From assembly GCA_035533495.1 (NCBI GenBank), contig DATLTW010000074.1, positions 25,006 to 89,005 of the forward strand: a stretch of 64,000 nucleotides of DNA, given 5' to 3'. A model generated the notes under the pieces. That model saw only the letters and a list, made by a program, of their open reading frames with translations, was not told where the DNA came from and ran no database searches. Shown here piece by piece: positions 14,959-61,152 of the stretch. Each line of letters begins with the position of its first letter. Position 1 is the stretch's first letter. The position numbers were made by a program, and so were the translations under genes. This DNA is from Acidimicrobiales bacterium (GTDB lineage: Bacteria; Actinomycetota; Acidimicrobiia; Acidimicrobiales; RAAP-2).

Positions 14959-15737
14959 TGCAGCACCTCAAGCAGTTTGGCGCCCTCTAAGGATACGCCC
15001 CACCACCACTGCATCTGCAGCGCCGCTTGGTAAGCCAACATCGCGAGCCCATTCATCGAGCGGCATCCCGCGTCCATGTAGAGCCGGCGCCAGGGCGTCA
15101 TTCGAGGTTCGTACAACAAGTCAACCGCGACGGTCTCGTGATGCACACCCTGGAGAACCGCGGCCTCTTCGCCCCGGCCCACCAGGGGCAGGGTATTCAC
15201 GACCAAGTCGACCGGCCGGTACACCAGCGACCGAGAGGAGACGTTCTGGTAGCGACCAGTGAGTTCGTCCACCTTCGCCTCGTTTCGAGCGAGCACCACC
15301 GCCGAGGCCACGCCCTGGTGCACCAGGGCATCGACAATCGCACTGGCTGCGCCGCCGGCGCCCAGGATGACGGCGTGAATGTTCTCAAGCGCGAAGCCCA
15401 TTTCGTTGCTCAAGGCGTTAACGAATCCAGGGCCATCAGTACTCTCGCCAAGAAGCTTCCCGTCACGTTGGACGAGCGAGTTAACTGACTTCGTGCGCTT
15501 GGCGACTTCGCTTCGTTCGTCGCAGATTTCGTTGGCCACCACTTTCAGCGGACTCGTCACCGACAACGCGTCGAACTTCGTCGTCGCGAGCACCCTCAAC
15601 TGATCGGTGCCGTCAAGACCCAACTCCACGCGCGTCGACGTACCGTCAAGGCCCGCGAGTTTAAGGCCCGCCATCTGTAATTGTGGCGAAAGAGAGTGTT
15701 CAATGGGCGAACCCACCACGCCGATTCGCCAGTTCAT
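14955..15737 (-). CDS. aroE: Shikimate dehydrogenase
   Basis: G.PIEHSLSP, VT.PLK, TDG.G, LGAGGAA, GLAMLAYQA. Confidence 0.9.
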   Translation of the reverse strand: MNWRIGVVGSPIEHSLSPQLQMAGLKLAGLDGTSTRVELGLDGTDQLRVLATTKFDALSVTSPLKVVANEICDERSEVAKRTKSVNSLVQRDGKLLGESTDGPGFVNALSNEMGFALENIHAVILGAGGAASAIVDALVHQGVASAVVLARNEAKVDELTGRYQNVSSRSLVYRPVDLVVNTLPLVGRGEEAAVLQGVHHETVAVDLLYEPRMTPWRRLYMDAGCRSMNGLAMLAYQAALQMQWWWGVSLEGAKLLEVLQ

Positions 15738-16747
15738 CCCACCCCCCTTGAGGCGGCGAGTCTCTCGTTCTTCAGTTGCTGGGCGAAAGTGGTGGAAAAG
15801 GCCTCGTCACCTCGCTTATTGATCACGGTGAAGTAGAGCCACGGTCCCGCAGGCGCGTGCAGGACGGCCTTGAGCGCGAAGGTCGACACCGCACAGATCG
15901 GCGTCGGCGTGAGGCCGGTGTTCAGATAAGTGTTGTAGGGGGTCGGCGTCTCCAACATGATGTGCGTGACTGCTCCCCCGTCGCGTCCGAGGAAGTAGAG
16001 CACCGTCGCGTCCATCTGAAGTGGGCCGCCTCGCGCCAATCGATTGAAGATCACGCGGGCCACTTGGGGCATATTGCGAGGGTAGTAGCCCTCTTTTTCG
16101 ACGATCGAAGCGGCCACGATCAACTGATAGGCGTTAAGTCCTCCCACGACCGTGGACGGCGTGAGACCGACCGACGCCGCCTCTTTTTGGAAACTACGCA
16201 CCATATCTTTCACGAGCTCGCGCGGTGTCGTCGTGGGCTTGATGACGTAGTTTCGGGCCCCAATGAGTCCTTCGAGGGAGGTGCCCTGATCGAACGTACT
16301 CGGCGTCTGCTTGGTCGTGGCGTCGGCAACAAAGGCGTTGGCGAACTTCGCGCCCTTGATGCTCACGAGGTTGTGGGCCACCTCGTGCAATGTCAGACCC
16401 GGCGAGACGGTCACCACAACGACGTTGGGCGCAGCACCAAGAATTGCCCGAACGCTGGCGAAGGAGGAGCCCTGGCGAAACTCGTACGTACCGGCTCGAA
16501 TCAGTGGGGTGCCGAGGAAGAGATTCTCCAAGCGGAAGGCGAAGGGCGACGCAATGACGCCGTCCGCGTGCAACTCTCCGGCAATCGTGGCCAACGAATC
16601 GCCCGGGTGCACGGTGACGATGACCTCCTTGCCCTTACCGGCAAAGATTGGATCGATCTGCAAGATGAACCAGCCCGCCACCAGCACGACGAGGACAGTG
16701 ACGCCGAGCAGCACTCGTCGAATCGGCCTAGTGAGCATGGTGGCCAT
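15734..16747 (-). CDS. mltG: Endolytic transglycosylase MltG
   Basis: N-terminal TM; ASIVEKE, V..NRL, LQMDAT, PYNTY..GL.PTPI; follows ruvX; start approximate. Confidence 0.92.
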   Translation of the reverse strand: MATMLTRPIRRVLLGVTVLVVLVAGWFILQIDPIFAGKGKEVIVTVHPGDSLATIAGELHADGVIASPFAFRLENLFLGTPLIRAGTYEFRQGSSFASVRAILGAAPNVVVVTVSPGLTLHEVAHNLVSIKGAKFANAFVADATTKQTPSTFDQGTSLEGLIGARNYVIKPTTTPRELVKDMVRSFQKEAASVGLTPSTVVGGLNAYQLIVAASIVEKEGYYPRNMPQVARVIFNRLARGGPLQMDATVLYFLGRDGGAVTHIMLETPTPYNTYLNTGLTPTPICAVSTFALKAVLHAPAGPWLYFTVINKRGDEAFSTTFAQQLKNERLAASRGVG

Positions 16748-17144
16748 CGACGTAGTTTTGCAGCATGATGACCGCCGCGGCGCTGTCCACGTGGTCACGA
16801 TGCTGCTTGGCCTTTAGCCCCGCTCGTGAAAGTGAGCGGTGCGCTTCGAAGGTCGTGAGGCGCTCGTCCCACTGCGTCACCGAAAGGTCACCGAGCGCCC
16901 CCACCAATTCGTGGAACAGCTCGTCCGCTTGCTTAGTACTCGAGGTCTCGTTGCCCGACAGCGCCACCGGCCGGCCGACCACTACCGCCTCGACCCCTTC
17001 GTCGACAATCAACTGTTGCAACGAAGTGATCAGAGCCTCGTCGTTCGCGAGGGCCGTGCGCGGAAAGGCCATCGTCTCGGCGGAATCAGTGATCGCAATG
17101 CCACAGCGCGCCGCACCGGGATCGATGCCAAGAAGCCGGGCCAT
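16728..17144 (-). CDS. ruvX: YqgF/RuvX pre-16S rRNA nuclease
   Basis: LGIDPG..RCGIA, WDERLTT, DSAAAVIMLQ. Confidence 0.93.
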   Translation of the reverse strand: MARLLGIDPGAARCGIAITDSAETMAFPRTALANDEALITSLQQLIVDEGVEAVVVGRPVALSGNETSSTKQADELFHELVGALGDLSVTQWDERLTTFEAHRSLSRAGLKAKQHRDHVDSAAAVIMLQNYVDGHHAH

Positions 17145-56787: not shown

Positions 56788-57522
56788 ATGACCAGATTAG
56801 GCATGGACTATCCAACGAAGTGGGGCCGTGGCTACAGCGCGCGTTTCGCGCGAAACGTCATCCACAGCTACCTCATGGGACCCTACGTCCGCTACCTCAC
56901 GACGCTCGAGGTTCGGGGCGTCACGAACATTGTGGGTAAAGGACCCTTCATCTTCGTCGCCAACCACTCGAGTAACGCCGACACCATCATTCTCCTGTCG
57001 GCGCTGCCGGTCGAGGTTCGCCGGCGCACGATCGTCGCCGCGGCGATGGACAGCTTTTTCATGAACGCCCGTGACGCCTTCAAAACCGTGCTGGTCTACA
57101 ACGCGATCCCCGTCGACCGGCTAAGGGTCAATCGGCGCAGCGCCCAACTGGCGCTCGAACTCGTCGAAGACGACTGGAATCTCGTGATCTACCCCGAGGG
57201 CGGTCGCACGCCTGACGGCAACCTGCATGAGTTCAAGGGCGGCGCGGCGTACCTGGCGGAGCGTTCGAAGGCGATGGTCATCCCGACCTATCTTCACGAA
57301 GCCGGAATGCTCAAAGGACCCAAGTACGCCAAGGCGCCCCAGTACGTCGACTCACCCAGTCAGCGTCGTCATCACGTCATCGTGGCCTTTGGATCGTCGA
57401 TGCATTGCGACGAGGGCGAGAACATGCGACGCTTCAACGTTCGAATTCAACACGCGGTGTCCGCTCTCGGCCGTGAGGTGAGCGGCGACCCGACTTACGG
57501 GACAATCGTCGACGACCATTAG
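56788..57522 (+). CDS. Lysophospholipid acyltransferase (PlsC family)
   Basis: NHSSNAD (Hx4D), YPEGGRT, FKGGAA. Confidence 0.9.
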   Translation: MTRLGMDYPTKWGRGYSARFARNVIHSYLMGPYVRYLTTLEVRGVTNIVGKGPFIFVANHSSNADTIILLSALPVEVRRRTIVAAAMDSFFMNARDAFKTVLVYNAIPVDRLRVNRRSAQLALELVEDDWNLVIYPEGGRTPDGNLHEFKGGAAYLAERSKAMVIPTYLHEAGMLKGPKYAKAPQYVDSPSQRRHHVIVAFGSSMHCDEGENMRRFNVRIQHAVSALGREVSGDPTYGTIVDDH

Positions 57523-58217
57523 CGTGCGAGCAGCGCTCGGCGCTCCTCGTAGAGTTGATCGGCCACCGTTGCCAGGGGTTCAAGCTCGAGACCGAGAACC
57601 CGCTCGAGCACCTCGTCGGCGAACCAGGGATTCATCGCCAACACCGGGCCGTGCGCGTAGCTCGCCCAAAGGGTGGACGTCGCAAAACCGTCGACGGCGC
57701 CGTCATTGCCGCGACCTCGCTCCACCGTGCCGAGCGCCTCGACGCCTGGACCCAATGTCGTACGTCCCCCGTGGTTCTCAAAGCCGACGAGGAGACGTCC
57801 GTTCCGCCGAACAAGGAGATCACCGACCGAGCGACTCTCCCCGCGGTGTGTCTTAATGTCCACGAGGCCCAGTCCTTCGAATTCGTCGTCGCCTTCGACG
57901 GCAAAGCTGGTGCCGAGAATCTGTAGTCCCGCACAGACCGCCAAGACGTAACCCCCGTCTCGGACCCTCGAAGAGAACGATGATCGGCGCAGTAAATCAG
58001 CCCCTAAACGTTGTGGACCATCTTCTCCCCCACCCAGGAGATAGATCGACGCGCCGGGCACTTCGTCGTCGATGCCCACGTTGATGATTTCAGCATTGAC
58101 GTTGCGGCGTCGCGCGCGCTCGGCCAAGACCAGAGCGTTGCCCCCGTCCCCGTAAGTTCCCAGCAGTTCGGGGTAAATGAGGCCGATGGTCAGCACGCGC
58201 GCGACCTTGTTCGCCAC
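57519..58217 (-). CDS. gatD: Lipid II isoglutaminyl synthase, glutaminase subunit
   Basis: YPELLGTYGD.GN, GGGED, VCAGLQ, GFENH.G, HGP. Confidence 0.92.
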   Translation of the reverse strand: MANKVARVLTIGLIYPELLGTYGDGGNALVLAERARRRNVNAEIINVGIDDEVPGASIYLLGGGEDGPQRLGADLLRRSSFSSRVRDGGYVLAVCAGLQILGTSFAVEGDDEFEGLGLVDIKTHRGESRSVGDLLVRRNGRLLVGFENHGGRTTLGPGVEALGTVERGRGNDGAVDGFATSTLWASYAHGPVLAMNPWFADEVLERVLGLELEPLATVADQLYEERRALLAR

Positions 58218-59404
58218 TCTTGAAAGGCGGTGTAGTTGGCCAGTAGCGCGACCGGAACAGCCGACACTGGGATGGACGAGTCGTCATTCACCACGACGTA
58301 GTCCACGTTCGCGTACTCGAGACGCGTCGCCAGGTCGAGTCGGCGATCACCGAAGCAGAAGACTCGGTGGCCCCGCAACAGTTCAAAAGGCACGTCGTAG
58401 AGCCACGAAGGATCATGTCCGTCGGCGACGCGCGCGTTGATCGCCACCCACACGTTCGATCCGTCGCGCTCGAGTGTCAAAAGCATGGCCGCGAAGCCGG
58501 CCGGGTTCTTCGCGAGCAGTAGACGAAAACGATGGCTTCGCCAACGTCGAACGCTATACCGTCCCGCCACGCTCGTCAGTGCGTTGACTCTCGCCACGGC
58601 CAGCGCTAGGTCGACGCCCACCAGCGAGAGCGCGGTCAGTGCCATGGCGGCGTTGGCTTGGTTGAACGCGCCGGGCAGCTTCAAGTCGAGCGCAAGTGGC
58701 GTACCTCGCACGACCAGGTTGTCGCGAAGCGTCGTGGCTATGTTGTTCGGCTTGGCGAAACCACAGTCGCACCACCACGACGACTCGGTGAAGTGAAGTG
58801 GTTGGGTACAGTGAGGGCACGAAACGGCGTCCGTCGTCCACGGCGTTGGTACGTCGCACCAGGCCACGCTGGTAGCGAGTTCCGCGGCGTATACGACCAG
58901 CGGATCGTTGGCGTTCGCGATCACCTGGGACTCCCTCGCGTTGGCGAGCAGTACGCGCCAACGATCAGCGATCCGGCGCACTTCGTTCGCGCGATCGAGC
59001 TGGTCGCGGGAGAGATTCAACAGTGTGATCGTGCGCGCGCCGGTCGCCTGGGTGACGTCCGGCAACCATGATTCGTCAACTTCAAGTACCGCCGAATGAC
59101 TCTTTGACGCCACCAGCGCGGCGACGAGCCCAGCGGGCATGTTCGAGCCAGTGTCGTTCGTCGCCACGGCGCCGCCCCAGCCCGCGGCAATCATGGCCGA
59201 TGTGGTCGTCTTGCCATTCGTTCCGCTCACCAGGATCACGTCTCGACGATGCGCGAGATCGGCCAACAGTTCGGGCGCCAGAGCGAGTCCCACTCGGCCC
59301 CCAACGACGGTTCCCGAGCCCCGAGAAGTGAGCCGAGAGAGGAAGTTGACCGTGCCAACAGCCCTTCTTGCGATGTCATCGCGAAAAGAGGACCCACTTG
59401 GCAT
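58190..59404 (-). CDS. murT: Lipid II isoglutaminyl synthase, Mur-ligase subunit
   Basis: GTNGKTTT, EVDE, NLSRDQLDR, CPHC/CDCG zinc finger, LAKNPAG, DG.D.SWL.DV. Confidence 0.92.
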   Translation of the reverse strand: MPSGSSFRDDIARRAVGTVNFLSRLTSRGSGTVVGGRVGLALAPELLADLAHRRDVILVSGTNGKTTTSAMIAAGWGGAVATNDTGSNMPAGLVAALVASKSHSAVLEVDESWLPDVTQATGARTITLLNLSRDQLDRANEVRRIADRWRVLLANARESQVIANANDPLVVYAAELATSVAWCDVPTPWTTDAVSCPHCTQPLHFTESSWWCDCGFAKPNNIATTLRDNLVVRGTPLALDLKLPGAFNQANAAMALTALSLVGVDLALAVARVNALTSVAGRYSVRRWRSHRFRLLLAKNPAGFAAMLLTLERDGSNVWVAINARVADGHDPSWLYDVPFELLRGHRVFCFGDRRLDLATRLEYANVDYVVVNDDSSIPVSAVPVALLANYTAFQEWRTRSRAC

Positions 59405-59433
59405 TAACGCAACGCTAACAATCCCTAAACGGC

Positions 59434-59466
59434 AAAAGGACCAACCGGGGGGCGGTTGGTCCTTTT
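59434..59466 (-). terminator. Intrinsic terminator (second hairpin of the sRNA)
   Basis: Perfect 14-bp inverted repeat AAAAGGACCAACCG/CGGTTGGTCCTTTT. Confidence 0.85.
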
Positions 59467-59511
59467 ACAAAACCCTAGGATTACTCAAGGGGGGTTCGAG
59501 TAAAGCAGGCT
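59434..59511 (-). ncRNA. 6C-type small RNA (~78 nt)
   Basis: Two hairpins, each with a six-C run (UUACUC-GAACCCCCCUU-GAGUAA and AAAAGGACCAACCG-CCCCC-CGGUUGGUCCUUUU); own -35/-10 promoter; ends in a U-tract. Confidence 0.8.
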
Positions 59512-59517
59512 GTTATC

Positions 59518-59546
59518 AGTATGGCGGTCCACTTTATATCTAGCAA
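59518..59546 (-). promoter_or_regulatory. Housekeeping-sigma-type promoter of the sRNA
   Basis: TTGCTA (59546-59541), 17-nt spacer, CATACT (59523-59518); predicted TSS about 59511. Confidence 0.7.
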
Positions 59547-59568
59547 GTGAATAGGAGAGATACTTTGC

Positions 59569-59583
59569 ATCTATATAGTAGAT
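59569..59583. promoter_or_regulatory. LysR-type recognition site (T-N11-A)
   Basis: ATCTA-TATAG-TAGAT inverted repeat, centred 65 nt upstream of the predicted sRNA TSS and covering the lysR -10 TATAGT. Confidence 0.72.
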
Positions 59584-59585
59584 AG

Positions 59586-60515
59586 GTGGAGATACGCCAG
59601 CTAGAGGCCCTGGTCAGCATCGCCGATCACGGGACCTTCTCTCACGCCGCCGAGGCCCTGGGCACGGTCCAGTCCAATATTTCGAATCGGGTGGCTCGCT
59701 TGGAACGCGAACTTGGTACCGAGCTAGTCGATCGCGCCACGGGCAACTTAACCGAGTCCGGCACCATCGTCGTGGGACGCGCGCAACGAATACTCGTCGA
59801 ACTACGAGCTATTGCGTCAGACGTTTCGGAACTCAACGCGGATATCTACGGTCAAGTGACCCTTGGGATGATCGGCACGGCGGGCCGTTGGATCGTGCCC
59901 CTACTACTGGAGAATCTGCGAAAGCGCTACTCGCATATCACCCTTCAAATAAGCGAGGGGACCAATTCGGCAATCGAACCGCGCCTCGTCAACGGCCAAC
60001 TCGACCTCGCGGTACTCGCGTGGCCCGTTCGAGCCGAAGAACTGACCGAAGTTGATCTCTTTACCGAAGATCTCGTGGTCATCGCCGCGCGAGATCACCC
60101 GCTCGCTCAGCTGATGGGTCCTCTCCCCTTTTCCACGCTCGCCCAATACGAGATTCTGCTCCCGATGCGTGGCACGCCCATTCGCCGAGAGATCGACGAG
60201 GCAGCTCACCAGGCTGGCATTGAGTTGCATCCCCTGATTGAACTTGACGGAATACGAACCATCGCGTCGATGACGTTCGACGGACACGGCCCGTCCATTC
60301 TGCCGGCCACCATGTTGTCGCCTCACCTTCGGGCCAACTTCGTCGCTCTCCCGATCAAAGACATTGCCAAGCGTCGCGTGGTATTGGCGACGCGACAGTT
60401 CGGCTTCCCGGCCGCACCGGTTCGCGCCATCCACGCTCTCCTGCTCGACGTCGTCGCCAACGCCACGAACGTGCCCGACGGCGTCTACCTGCCCGCCAAG
60501 AATTCTCTGCAATAG
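59586..60515 (+). CDS. LysR-family transcriptional regulator
   Basis: MEIRQL...GTFSHAAEAL..VQS.IS..V..LE.ELG..L HTH plus substrate-binding domain; no Cys. Confidence 0.95.
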   Translation: MEIRQLEALVSIADHGTFSHAAEALGTVQSNISNRVARLERELGTELVDRATGNLTESGTIVVGRAQRILVELRAIASDVSELNADIYGQVTLGMIGTAGRWIVPLLLENLRKRYSHITLQISEGTNSAIEPRLVNGQLDLAVLAWPVRAEELTEVDLFTEDLVVIAARDHPLAQLMGPLPFSTLAQYEILLPMRGTPIRREIDEAAHQAGIELHPLIELDGIRTIASMTFDGHGPSILPATMLSPHLRANFVALPIKDIAKRRVVLATRQFGFPAAPVRAIHALLLDVVANATNVPDGVYLPAKNSLQ

Positions 60516-60522
60516 TCAACGG

Positions 60523-61152
60523 GTGCCCACGCCGCTATCACCCGACGAGATAGCCGCCTCAATTATTAAACGAGATCGAGCTTTCAAGAAACTCATCAAG
60601 GAAATCGGATCTCCGCCGCCTCGGCGCAGCGCTCCGGTCGCGCAACGCTTTCCCACATTGGCCCGTTCGATCACGTACCAGCTCCTCGCGGGCAAGGCCG
60701 CAAACACCATTCATCAAAGAGTCATCGATCTCTGTGACGGCCACGTCAGCGCCGAATCGATCACGAGTGCCGGTCACGAGAGATTGCGGGCCGTGGGACT
60801 TTCGAATGCGAAGGCGGCCGCCATGCTCGATCTGGCCGAGCGAACCCTCGACGGACGCGTGCAATTGGCCCGACACGGTCGGATGAGCGACCACGAGGTC
60901 CTCGTCGACGTGGTGGCCGTTCGCGGCGTTGGGCCCTGGACCGCGCAGATGTACCTAATGCACACTCTGGCGCGCCACGACGTGTGGCCGGCGGGCGACT
61001 TTGGGGTGCGCAACGGTTGGTCGATCGTGCACAATCTCGACGAACTCGTGAGCGAGGGCGAACTGGGAAAAGAAGGCGACGCCTTCACCGGGGTACGTTC
61101 GGATGTGGCGTGGTACTGCTGGGAGGCCGTGGGCCTGTCGCGCGCAAAGTAA
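60523..61152 (+). CDS. alkA: DNA-3-methyladenine glycosylase II (HhH-GPD)
   Basis: I.YQ.L..KAA, GLS..K, VRGVGPWTA.M, PAGD.GVR. Confidence 0.88.
   Translation: MPTPLSPDEIAASIIKRDRAFKKLIKEIGSPPPRRSAPVAQRFPTLARSITYQLLAGKAANTIHQRVIDLCDGHVSAESITSAGHERLRAVGLSNAKAAAMLDLAERTLDGRVQLARHGRMSDHEVLVDVVAVRGVGPWTAQMYLMHTLARHDVWPAGDFGVRNGWSIVHNLDELVSEGELGKEGDAFTGVRSDVAWYCWEAVGLSRAK

Follow-up and report, generated by a model that had tools for sequence, protein, structure and literature searches.

A 6C-like small RNA gene paired with a divergent LysR-type regulator gene across the Acidimicrobiales

What is encoded in the 181-bp gap that direct reading finds between murT (ATG at 59404, minus strand) and lysR (GTG at 59586) in an uncultured Acidimicrobiales bacterium? 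The window, i.e. the whole stretch of 64,000 nucleotides that was analysed, stems from a genome assembly of 1.75 Mb with 62% G+C and 89% completeness. A sequence-only reading of this DNA had placed a promoter, two hairpins with six C each, a terminator and a recognition box for a LysR-type transcriptional regulator (LTTR) into the gap, and all of these were found again by direct reading at the positions given. Our comparison with related genomes supports, as far as sequence comparison goes, that the gap holds a real and conserved small RNA (sRNA) gene. Furthermore, we consider it probable that this gene encodes a stand-alone, trans-acting sRNA under the control of the divergently encoded LysR. 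The elements of the sRNA gene are:

59541–59546, minus strand: −35 hexamer TTGCTA of the sRNA promoter (TTGACA or TTGACT in most other families)
59518–59523, minus strand: −10 hexamer CATACT, 17 nt after the −35 hexamer
59427–59511, minus strand: predicted sRNA of about 78–85 nt, with the predicted start near 59511 and the predicted end in the U-tract 59434–59427
59482–59502, minus strand: hairpin 1, a 7-bp stem with the loop ACCCCCC, C-run at 59494–59489
59434–59466, minus strand: hairpin 2, the intrinsic terminator, a 14-bp stem with U-tract, C-run at 59452–59447 in or at the loop

Each of the two hairpins thus has six or more consecutive C within or bordering its loop, as demanded by the definition of 6C RNA, and in hairpin 2 the 3′ arm is closed by UUUU, followed by GCCGUUU. 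A 111-nt stretch folds at −40.7 kcal/mol (z = −4.3), and none of 200 shuffled sequences folds as well. The minus strand of the window contains only five runs of six or more C, the two of the sRNA being 37 nt apart, and the whole genome contains nine pairs of such runs at a distance of up to 60 nt. A simple sigma-70 scan did not call the sRNA promoter, as 8 of 12 positions match and the scan needs 9, and therefore the evidence for this promoter is its conservation: CATACT is invariant in all 18 genus sequences, and a consensus cA.AAT is located at the equivalent position throughout the order. Outside the window we observed a further hairpin with a CCCCCC loop (G000:C1:34320–34420, minus strand; CUCCGAG-CCCCCCA-CUCGGAG), with a second C6 run before it and an ATG about 6 nt after it; it is not found by the RNA models described below.

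Within the genus the gap is kept in 17 of 24 genomes (blastn), and in its alignment the −10 is invariant, the C-runs are retained and the stems carry compensatory changes, with RNAalifold assigning 24 pairs, 11 of them with double (compensatory) changes. Two covariance models were used for the RNA, R1, built from the genus, and a second one, R2; the window sRNA scores 98.8 bits with R1 and 82.4 bits with R2 and is present as a single copy in its genome. Full-length matches to R1 exist in many other families of the order. In an order-wide alignment of 90 sequences, which was fitted to the structure of the model and thus leans towards it, compensatory changes are seen at all 24 pairs, 92% of the cells are paired and the covariation score reaches 0.64, compared to 37–53% and at most 0.16 when the partners are slid. 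Hairpin 2 contributes compensatory changes at 15 of 15 pairs with 97% of its cells paired in these sequences, and hairpin 1 shows such changes at the genus as well as at the order level. The stem covariation that had been suggested as a check of the locus is therefore present in both samples. Runs of C5 to C8 are conserved in all relatives, with three C-loop hairpins occurring in other families. These relatives belong to the Acidimicrobiales/Acidimicrobiaceae, i.e. to the Actinomycetota, and are uncultured soil and peat metagenome-assembled genomes. Matches of R2 outside the order proved to be plain terminators at gene ends and were discarded. In many families (L066–L127) a G-run, CGGGGG or UGGGGG, complementary to the C-loops lies within about 5 nt past the terminator stem.

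Is this RNA tied to lysR, or does it only happen to lie next to it? The gene in question is:

59586–60515, plus strand: lysR, encoding a LysR-type regulator of 309 amino acids without cysteine, GTG start, probably leaderless

Among the order-wide R1 loci, 16 have an orthologous lysR (40–56% identity) as the divergent neighbour of the RNA, and murT is found beside the RNA in 3 of 25 loci tested and in three more loci of another search, a total of six loci from at least five families. Starting from lysR orthologues in public genomes (44–86% identity), the RNA was detected upstream on the opposite strand at 79 of 80 loci, 63–219 nt away, and at the sole locus without it only 79 nt of upstream DNA are present. 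A second, independent sample of the order gave a lysR orthologue at 321–472 bits in 34 of 36 genomes and the RNA divergent from lysR at all 29 loci examined, 24 of them recognised by R2 and five by eye, the latter being a variant in which two loops have C5 and the terminator is separate. What had been read from a single locus can thus be extended: more than 100 genomes, drawn from many families, keep the C-runs, the promoter and the box at −65 next to the orthologue of lysR.

A closer view of the region between the two start sites shows how regulator and RNA may be connected. Two features are relevant here:

59569–59583, no strand assigned: LTTR recognition box ATCTATATAGTAGAT (ATC-N9-GAT, of the T-N11-A type), reading ATCTA-N5-TAGAT
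59538–59583, minus strand: 46-nt promoter module consisting of ATC-N9-GAT, 7 nt, ATC, 18 nt including the −35 hexamer, and GAT

The centre of the box (59576) is 65 nt away from the predicted sRNA start at 59511, i.e. at about −65, and the −10 of lysR, TATAGT (59574–59579), 6 nt before the GTG, lies inside the box. Throughout the order the box is part of a module ATC-N9-GAT-N21/22-TTG-N3/4-GAT, always 46 nt in total, which was found in 110 of 112 lysR-upstream regions; in these 110 regions the dyad centre precedes the −35 by exactly 30 nt, counted to the first T of this hexamer, and additional ATC and GAT half-sites flank or overlap the sRNA −35. From the dyad to the start of lysR the distance ranges between 1 and 84 nt. 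With a spacing that is fixed relative to the sRNA −35 and variable relative to the start of lysR, the box is positioned for the sRNA promoter. A T-N11-A recognition site combined with activation sites is the established layout of LTTR promoters (PMC11495319), and it is matched here by the dyad at −65 plus the half-sites near the −35, which makes the 46-nt module a candidate for the recognition and activation sites of an LTTR.

The protein itself carries the Pfam domains HTH_1 (PF00126, N-terminal helix-turn-helix) and LysR_substrate (PF03466, substrate-binding domain) and hence belongs to the LysR family. None of the NCBIfam equivalogs reaches its cut-off, the best being CynR with 145 bits against a cut-off of 277. 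The idea of a thiol switch of the OxyR type was rejected, as the protein has no cysteine and scores 115 bits with the OxyR model, the cut-off of which is 329. Its recognition helix TVQSNVS is invariant in the lysR orthologues, and 17 of 18 LTTRs of sister orders of the class Acidimicrobiia share it; these proteins are only 35–38% identical overall and have the same module upstream. Since helix and module are retained in otherwise diverged LTTRs, the helix and its box are conserved together, from which we infer that LysR binds the module.

We propose the following mechanism for the locus. The gap would give rise to a stand-alone, trans-acting RNA of about 80 nt, transcribed on the minus strand from its own sigma-A-type promoter and folding into two hairpins that expose their C-runs, the second of which would double as terminator. 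The divergently encoded LysR would bind the box near −65 plus the weaker half-sites overlapping the −35 and control transcription of the RNA in response to a non-thiol signal, with activation being the most likely direction. Bound LysR would also cover the −10 of its own gene, leading to autoregulation of lysR, and the C-loops would probably pair with G-rich ribosome-binding regions in a 6C-like manner. A discrete transcript and its ends, direct control by LysR, the direction of this control, the ligand and the targets are what we infer here.

How far does this circuit extend beyond the order? In the other orders of the Acidimicrobiia the best LTTR scores 207–252 bits, and the 46-nt module is found in 16 of 18 LTTR-upstream regions, where it drives a gene of the WhiB family (Pfam Whib); LTTR and whiB genes are arranged back to back at 12 of 12 loci. 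The whiB leader of about 100 nt contains one long GC hairpin with a C6–7 loop, which R2 aligns to hairpin 2 of the sRNA, and an Rfam scan of these leaders found nothing. Thus, the LTTR–whiB divergon shares with the window locus the module, the TVQSNVS helix and an alignable C-loop hairpin, but this hairpin is the leader of the WhiB gene, and neither a first hairpin nor a stand-alone RNA is present, unlike in the window. The WhiB protein of the sister orders is found at full length only there, and it has a long conserved C-terminal tail (REYGFWGGESEEERAAAGYRVDMPVGRVARYPKG; L195–L224).

A second ATC-N9-GAT...TTGGAATGAT module was seen before a whiB paralogue without an adjacent lysR (L235, G052:C10:77018–77921). 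The genome G052 belongs to the order and also carries the lysR–sRNA pair, and this second module may indicate that the LysR regulon includes more than the sRNA. The genome of the window has four whiB-family genes, and in three of them the ribosome-binding site contains a run of GGGGG, compared to 1.7–6.9% of open reading frame (ORF) starts, a count that was made after the fact and is a mere lead to possible targets:

G000 C25:7922–8113, C25:9032–9223 and C31:38213–38428, outside the window: whiB-family genes with the G5 run

From the shared module with its alignable hairpin, the second module in G052 and the G5 runs of the whiB genes one might derive a single class-wide circuit, in which an LTTR-driven whiB with a C-loop leader would be ancestral and the leader would have become a free 6C-type sRNA in the Acidimicrobiales, which would now target whiB-family mRNAs in trans at their G-rich ribosome-binding sites. 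We regard this as a tentative and rather doubtful scenario.

Could the sRNA be real and nevertheless constitutive, with a box that serves only the promoter or the autoregulation of lysR and a pairing that is mere neighbourhood? In this genus the box centre coincides with the −10 of lysR, the sRNA promoter has a good −35 and −10 by itself, and 6C of Corynebacterium glutamicum is transcribed from a SigA/SigB promoter that is tuned by LexA and RamA and involves no LTTR (PMC5014011). However, the box keeps its exact distance to the −35 of the sRNA and not to lysR, further half-sites overlap this −35, and the same module stands before whiB in the sister orders and before the whiB paralogue in G052, where no lysR is adjacent. 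A constitutive sRNA is therefore improbable in our view, and we continue to prefer one that is controlled by LysR.

Whether the RNA acts on its own or as a leader of the next gene can be judged from the genes that follow it, which in the window are:

58190–59404, minus strand: murT, the downstream neighbour outside the module (Pfam MurT_C and Mur_ligase_M)
57519–58217, after murT: gatD (Pfam GATase_3)
59412–59417, minus strand: −10 of murT itself, TAGCGT, 7 nt before the ATG of a leaderless murT

That the RNA is instead a leader or attenuator acting in cis on the next gene of the same direction, i.e. on murT–gatD here and on a HAD-acyltransferase gene elsewhere, which LysR would control via read-through of the terminator, is suggested by the terminator ending just 29 nt before the murT ATG, by the occurrence of murT after the RNA in several families, and by the homologous C-loop hairpin that sits in the whiB leader behind the same module in the sister orders. 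Against it stands the variation of the downstream gene, which is murT in this genus and a few other families and a fusion of HAD and acyltransferase domains at 47 lysR-anchored loci, at a spacing from the RNA that ranges from 20 to more than 300 nt. Moreover, murT as well as the HAD-acyltransferase gene is preceded by its own conserved −10 element, TAnnnT, at 6–8 nt from the start codon, as in leaderless actinobacterial genes, so that these two would be leaderless; in the window a strong terminator (14 bp plus U-tract) precedes murT, whose −10 stretch TTGTTAGCGTTG is kept across the genus alignment. No coding gene ends at the sRNA terminator. Because the downstream gene varies and carries its own leaderless −10, a stand-alone RNA is favoured, and the argument for it that had originally been made from the murT −10 is borne out by the other families; to the leader we would give little chance. 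On the far side of lysR, the longest frame of an HhH-GPD glycosylase gene (60364–61152) overlaps the final 150 nt of lysR, and its true start is probably located later, past the lysR stop at 60515.

Several results weigh against a LysR-controlled, trans-acting 6C-type sRNA. Two public RNA runs contain no usable evidence of a discrete transcript. In run X1 a single contig of 153 nt (59497–59649) spans both promoters and is uninformative on a discrete RNA. Run X2, which is labelled RNA-Seq and may be DNA, gave contigs of 37–38 nt on the terminator hairpin (59434–59471) at a depth of 68–100, with a summed depth of about 500 on the hairpin compared to 2–3 on the flanks, but as many relatives share the terminator hairpin this depth is ambiguous. 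Scans for targets did not predict any above controls. Scanning with the whole sRNA led to long, meaningless duplexes and was dropped. The best-ranking candidate for the loop, aroE (15741–15752), is unsupported as well, since its −27.2 kcal/mol is surpassed by a reversed-loop control with −29.7 kcal/mol; the site is a true 12-nt complement of the loop, and of 15 further members of the genus just two, the closest relatives G014 and G006, retain its G-run. Around this site (15734–15752) the ATG of aroE overlaps the stop of the preceding frame as ATGA, and the G6 Shine-Dalgarno sequence of aroE lies inside the coding end of that frame (15734–16798, minus strand), which had been named mltG in the first reading. 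The linkage to lysR also has an exception: genome G061, 97% complete, contains the RNA with a different promoter but yielded no orthologue of lysR. In this genome the homologous C-loop RNA is located upstream of murT (L138, G061:C52:11636–11736). To these points have to be added the fitting of the order-wide alignment to its model and the sister orders, where the hairpin is located in cis, inside the whiB leader, and a cis role thus exists in this family. Finally, the Rfam model of 6C, RF01066, finds no match at E ≤ 10 between 58900 and 60100.

Is the RNA then a 6C RNA at all? The Rfam search had been suggested as a check when the RNA was first called 6C-like, and on this count the window RNA falls below the threshold, with the best RF01066 match of the genome (19 bits) lying elsewhere. 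The name ‘6C-type’ therefore rests on architecture and synteny. Homologues from three other families (L033, L035 and L037) reach 34–36 bits with RF01066 at the RNA itself, the cut-off being 47, and R1 with its filters switched off hits canonical 6C genes at their exact positions with 16–19 bits. Searching whole genomes with RF01066 brought none of 151 genomes of the order to the cut-off, which is weak evidence of absence, as the number of candidates scored per genome is only about 29 and, among 151 genomes of the phylum, canonical 6C was recovered from just 7. Scanning the whole window against Rfam at gathering thresholds, and the region around the RNA at E ≤ 10, yielded only chance matches and one tRNA.

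All seven canonical 6C loci sampled contain a HAD gene, which shares about 30% identity with the HAD domain encoded beside the Acidimicrobiales RNA, and in five of five canonical-6C genomes the genome-wide best match of this domain is the 6C-adjacent gene (tblastn). In the order the HAD neighbour accompanies the RNA in most families (47 lysR-anchored and 13 order-wide loci). The RNA of the window is followed by murT and has no HAD neighbour; the HAD gene of this genome is located on contig C31 with no C-loop RNA beside it. The contrast drawn in the sequence-only reading to the mycobacterial 6C RNA B11, which lies beside a HAD gene, consequently holds for this genus and breaks down in most of the order, where the RNA adjoins the counterpart of the same gene. 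A lysR gene within 1.5 kb was found at none of the seven canonical 6C loci, and one genome, G099, has a 6C-like match without lysR in addition to a lysR-linked RNA. Pfam searches with the ORFs beside near-threshold and canonical 6C loci were uninformative. Comparison of sequences and gene order thus makes a diverged 6C-type sRNA the most likely ancestry of the RNA, which is probably a positional orthologue of 6C that has a LysR partner in this order. That it is simply the copy of the known 6C in this lineage, with a LysR neighbour of no special meaning, is very improbable: architecture, phylum, HAD synteny and the reciprocal matches below threshold would all agree with it, but RF01066 fails on the window RNA, the seven canonical genes have no lysR in their vicinity, G099 holds both kinds of locus, and our literature search found no publication joining 6C to a LysR regulator or to the Acidimicrobiia.

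If LysR indeed controls this RNA, a whole order would possess a 6C-type RNA that is undetected by Rfam and tied to one conserved LysR with a readable operator, offering a testable entry to the signal behind this class of RNA, which would gain a candidate for a dedicated regulator. In addition, the sRNA becomes linked to the whiB leader of the sister orders. For practical use, the two covariance models and the operator consensus might serve to annotate such loci.

How does the pair compare to known systems? 6C is among the few sRNAs common to the Actinomycetota and affects growth, cell division, DNA replication and the SOS response in mycobacteria and corynebacteria; we know of no dedicated signal-sensing regulator for it. 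Like 6C (RF01066; B11/ncRv13660c in Mycobacterium tuberculosis, cgb_03605 in C. glutamicum), the window RNA has a predicted length of about 80 nt and two hairpins of at least six C each, the second being the terminator, it occurs in Actinomycetota, and a best-match HAD counterpart adjoins the RNA in most families of the order. Unlike 6C, it is not detected by the Rfam model, differs in primary sequence and has two to three or more hairpins in other families. Its divergent lysR gene and LTTR-type module are absent from the canonical 6C loci, and the HAD gene, divergent there, is co-directional and fused to an acyltransferase in the families of the order that have it. By analogy with 6C of M. 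tuberculosis, which acts through its C-rich loops on G-rich 5′ untranslated regions (PMC6486639), the window RNA would probably also pair through its C-loops.

A likeness in the C-rich motif also exists to RsaE/RoxS, which differs in sequence and lineage and has no divergent LTTR. These sRNAs from Firmicutes use unpaired C-runs to pair with G-rich Shine-Dalgarno sequences and are controlled by ResD/SrrA and Rex. The arrangement of the genes has its closest parallels in OxyR/OxyS and GcvA/GcvB from Escherichia coli and in VtlR(LsrB)/AbcR from Rhizobiales, where the LTTR is encoded back to back with an sRNA gene, activates it from a site upstream of the −35 and binds its own promoter. The same divergent LTTR–sRNA layout is found here, with control by LysR as a prediction, and LysR, which has no cysteine, lacks the thiol switch of OxyR. 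OxyS, GcvB and AbcR belong to proteobacterial, Hfq-dependent systems and are unrelated to the sRNA of the window. The LTTR–sRNA divergon, known from Proteobacteria, would thus be extended to the Hfq-less Actinomycetota.

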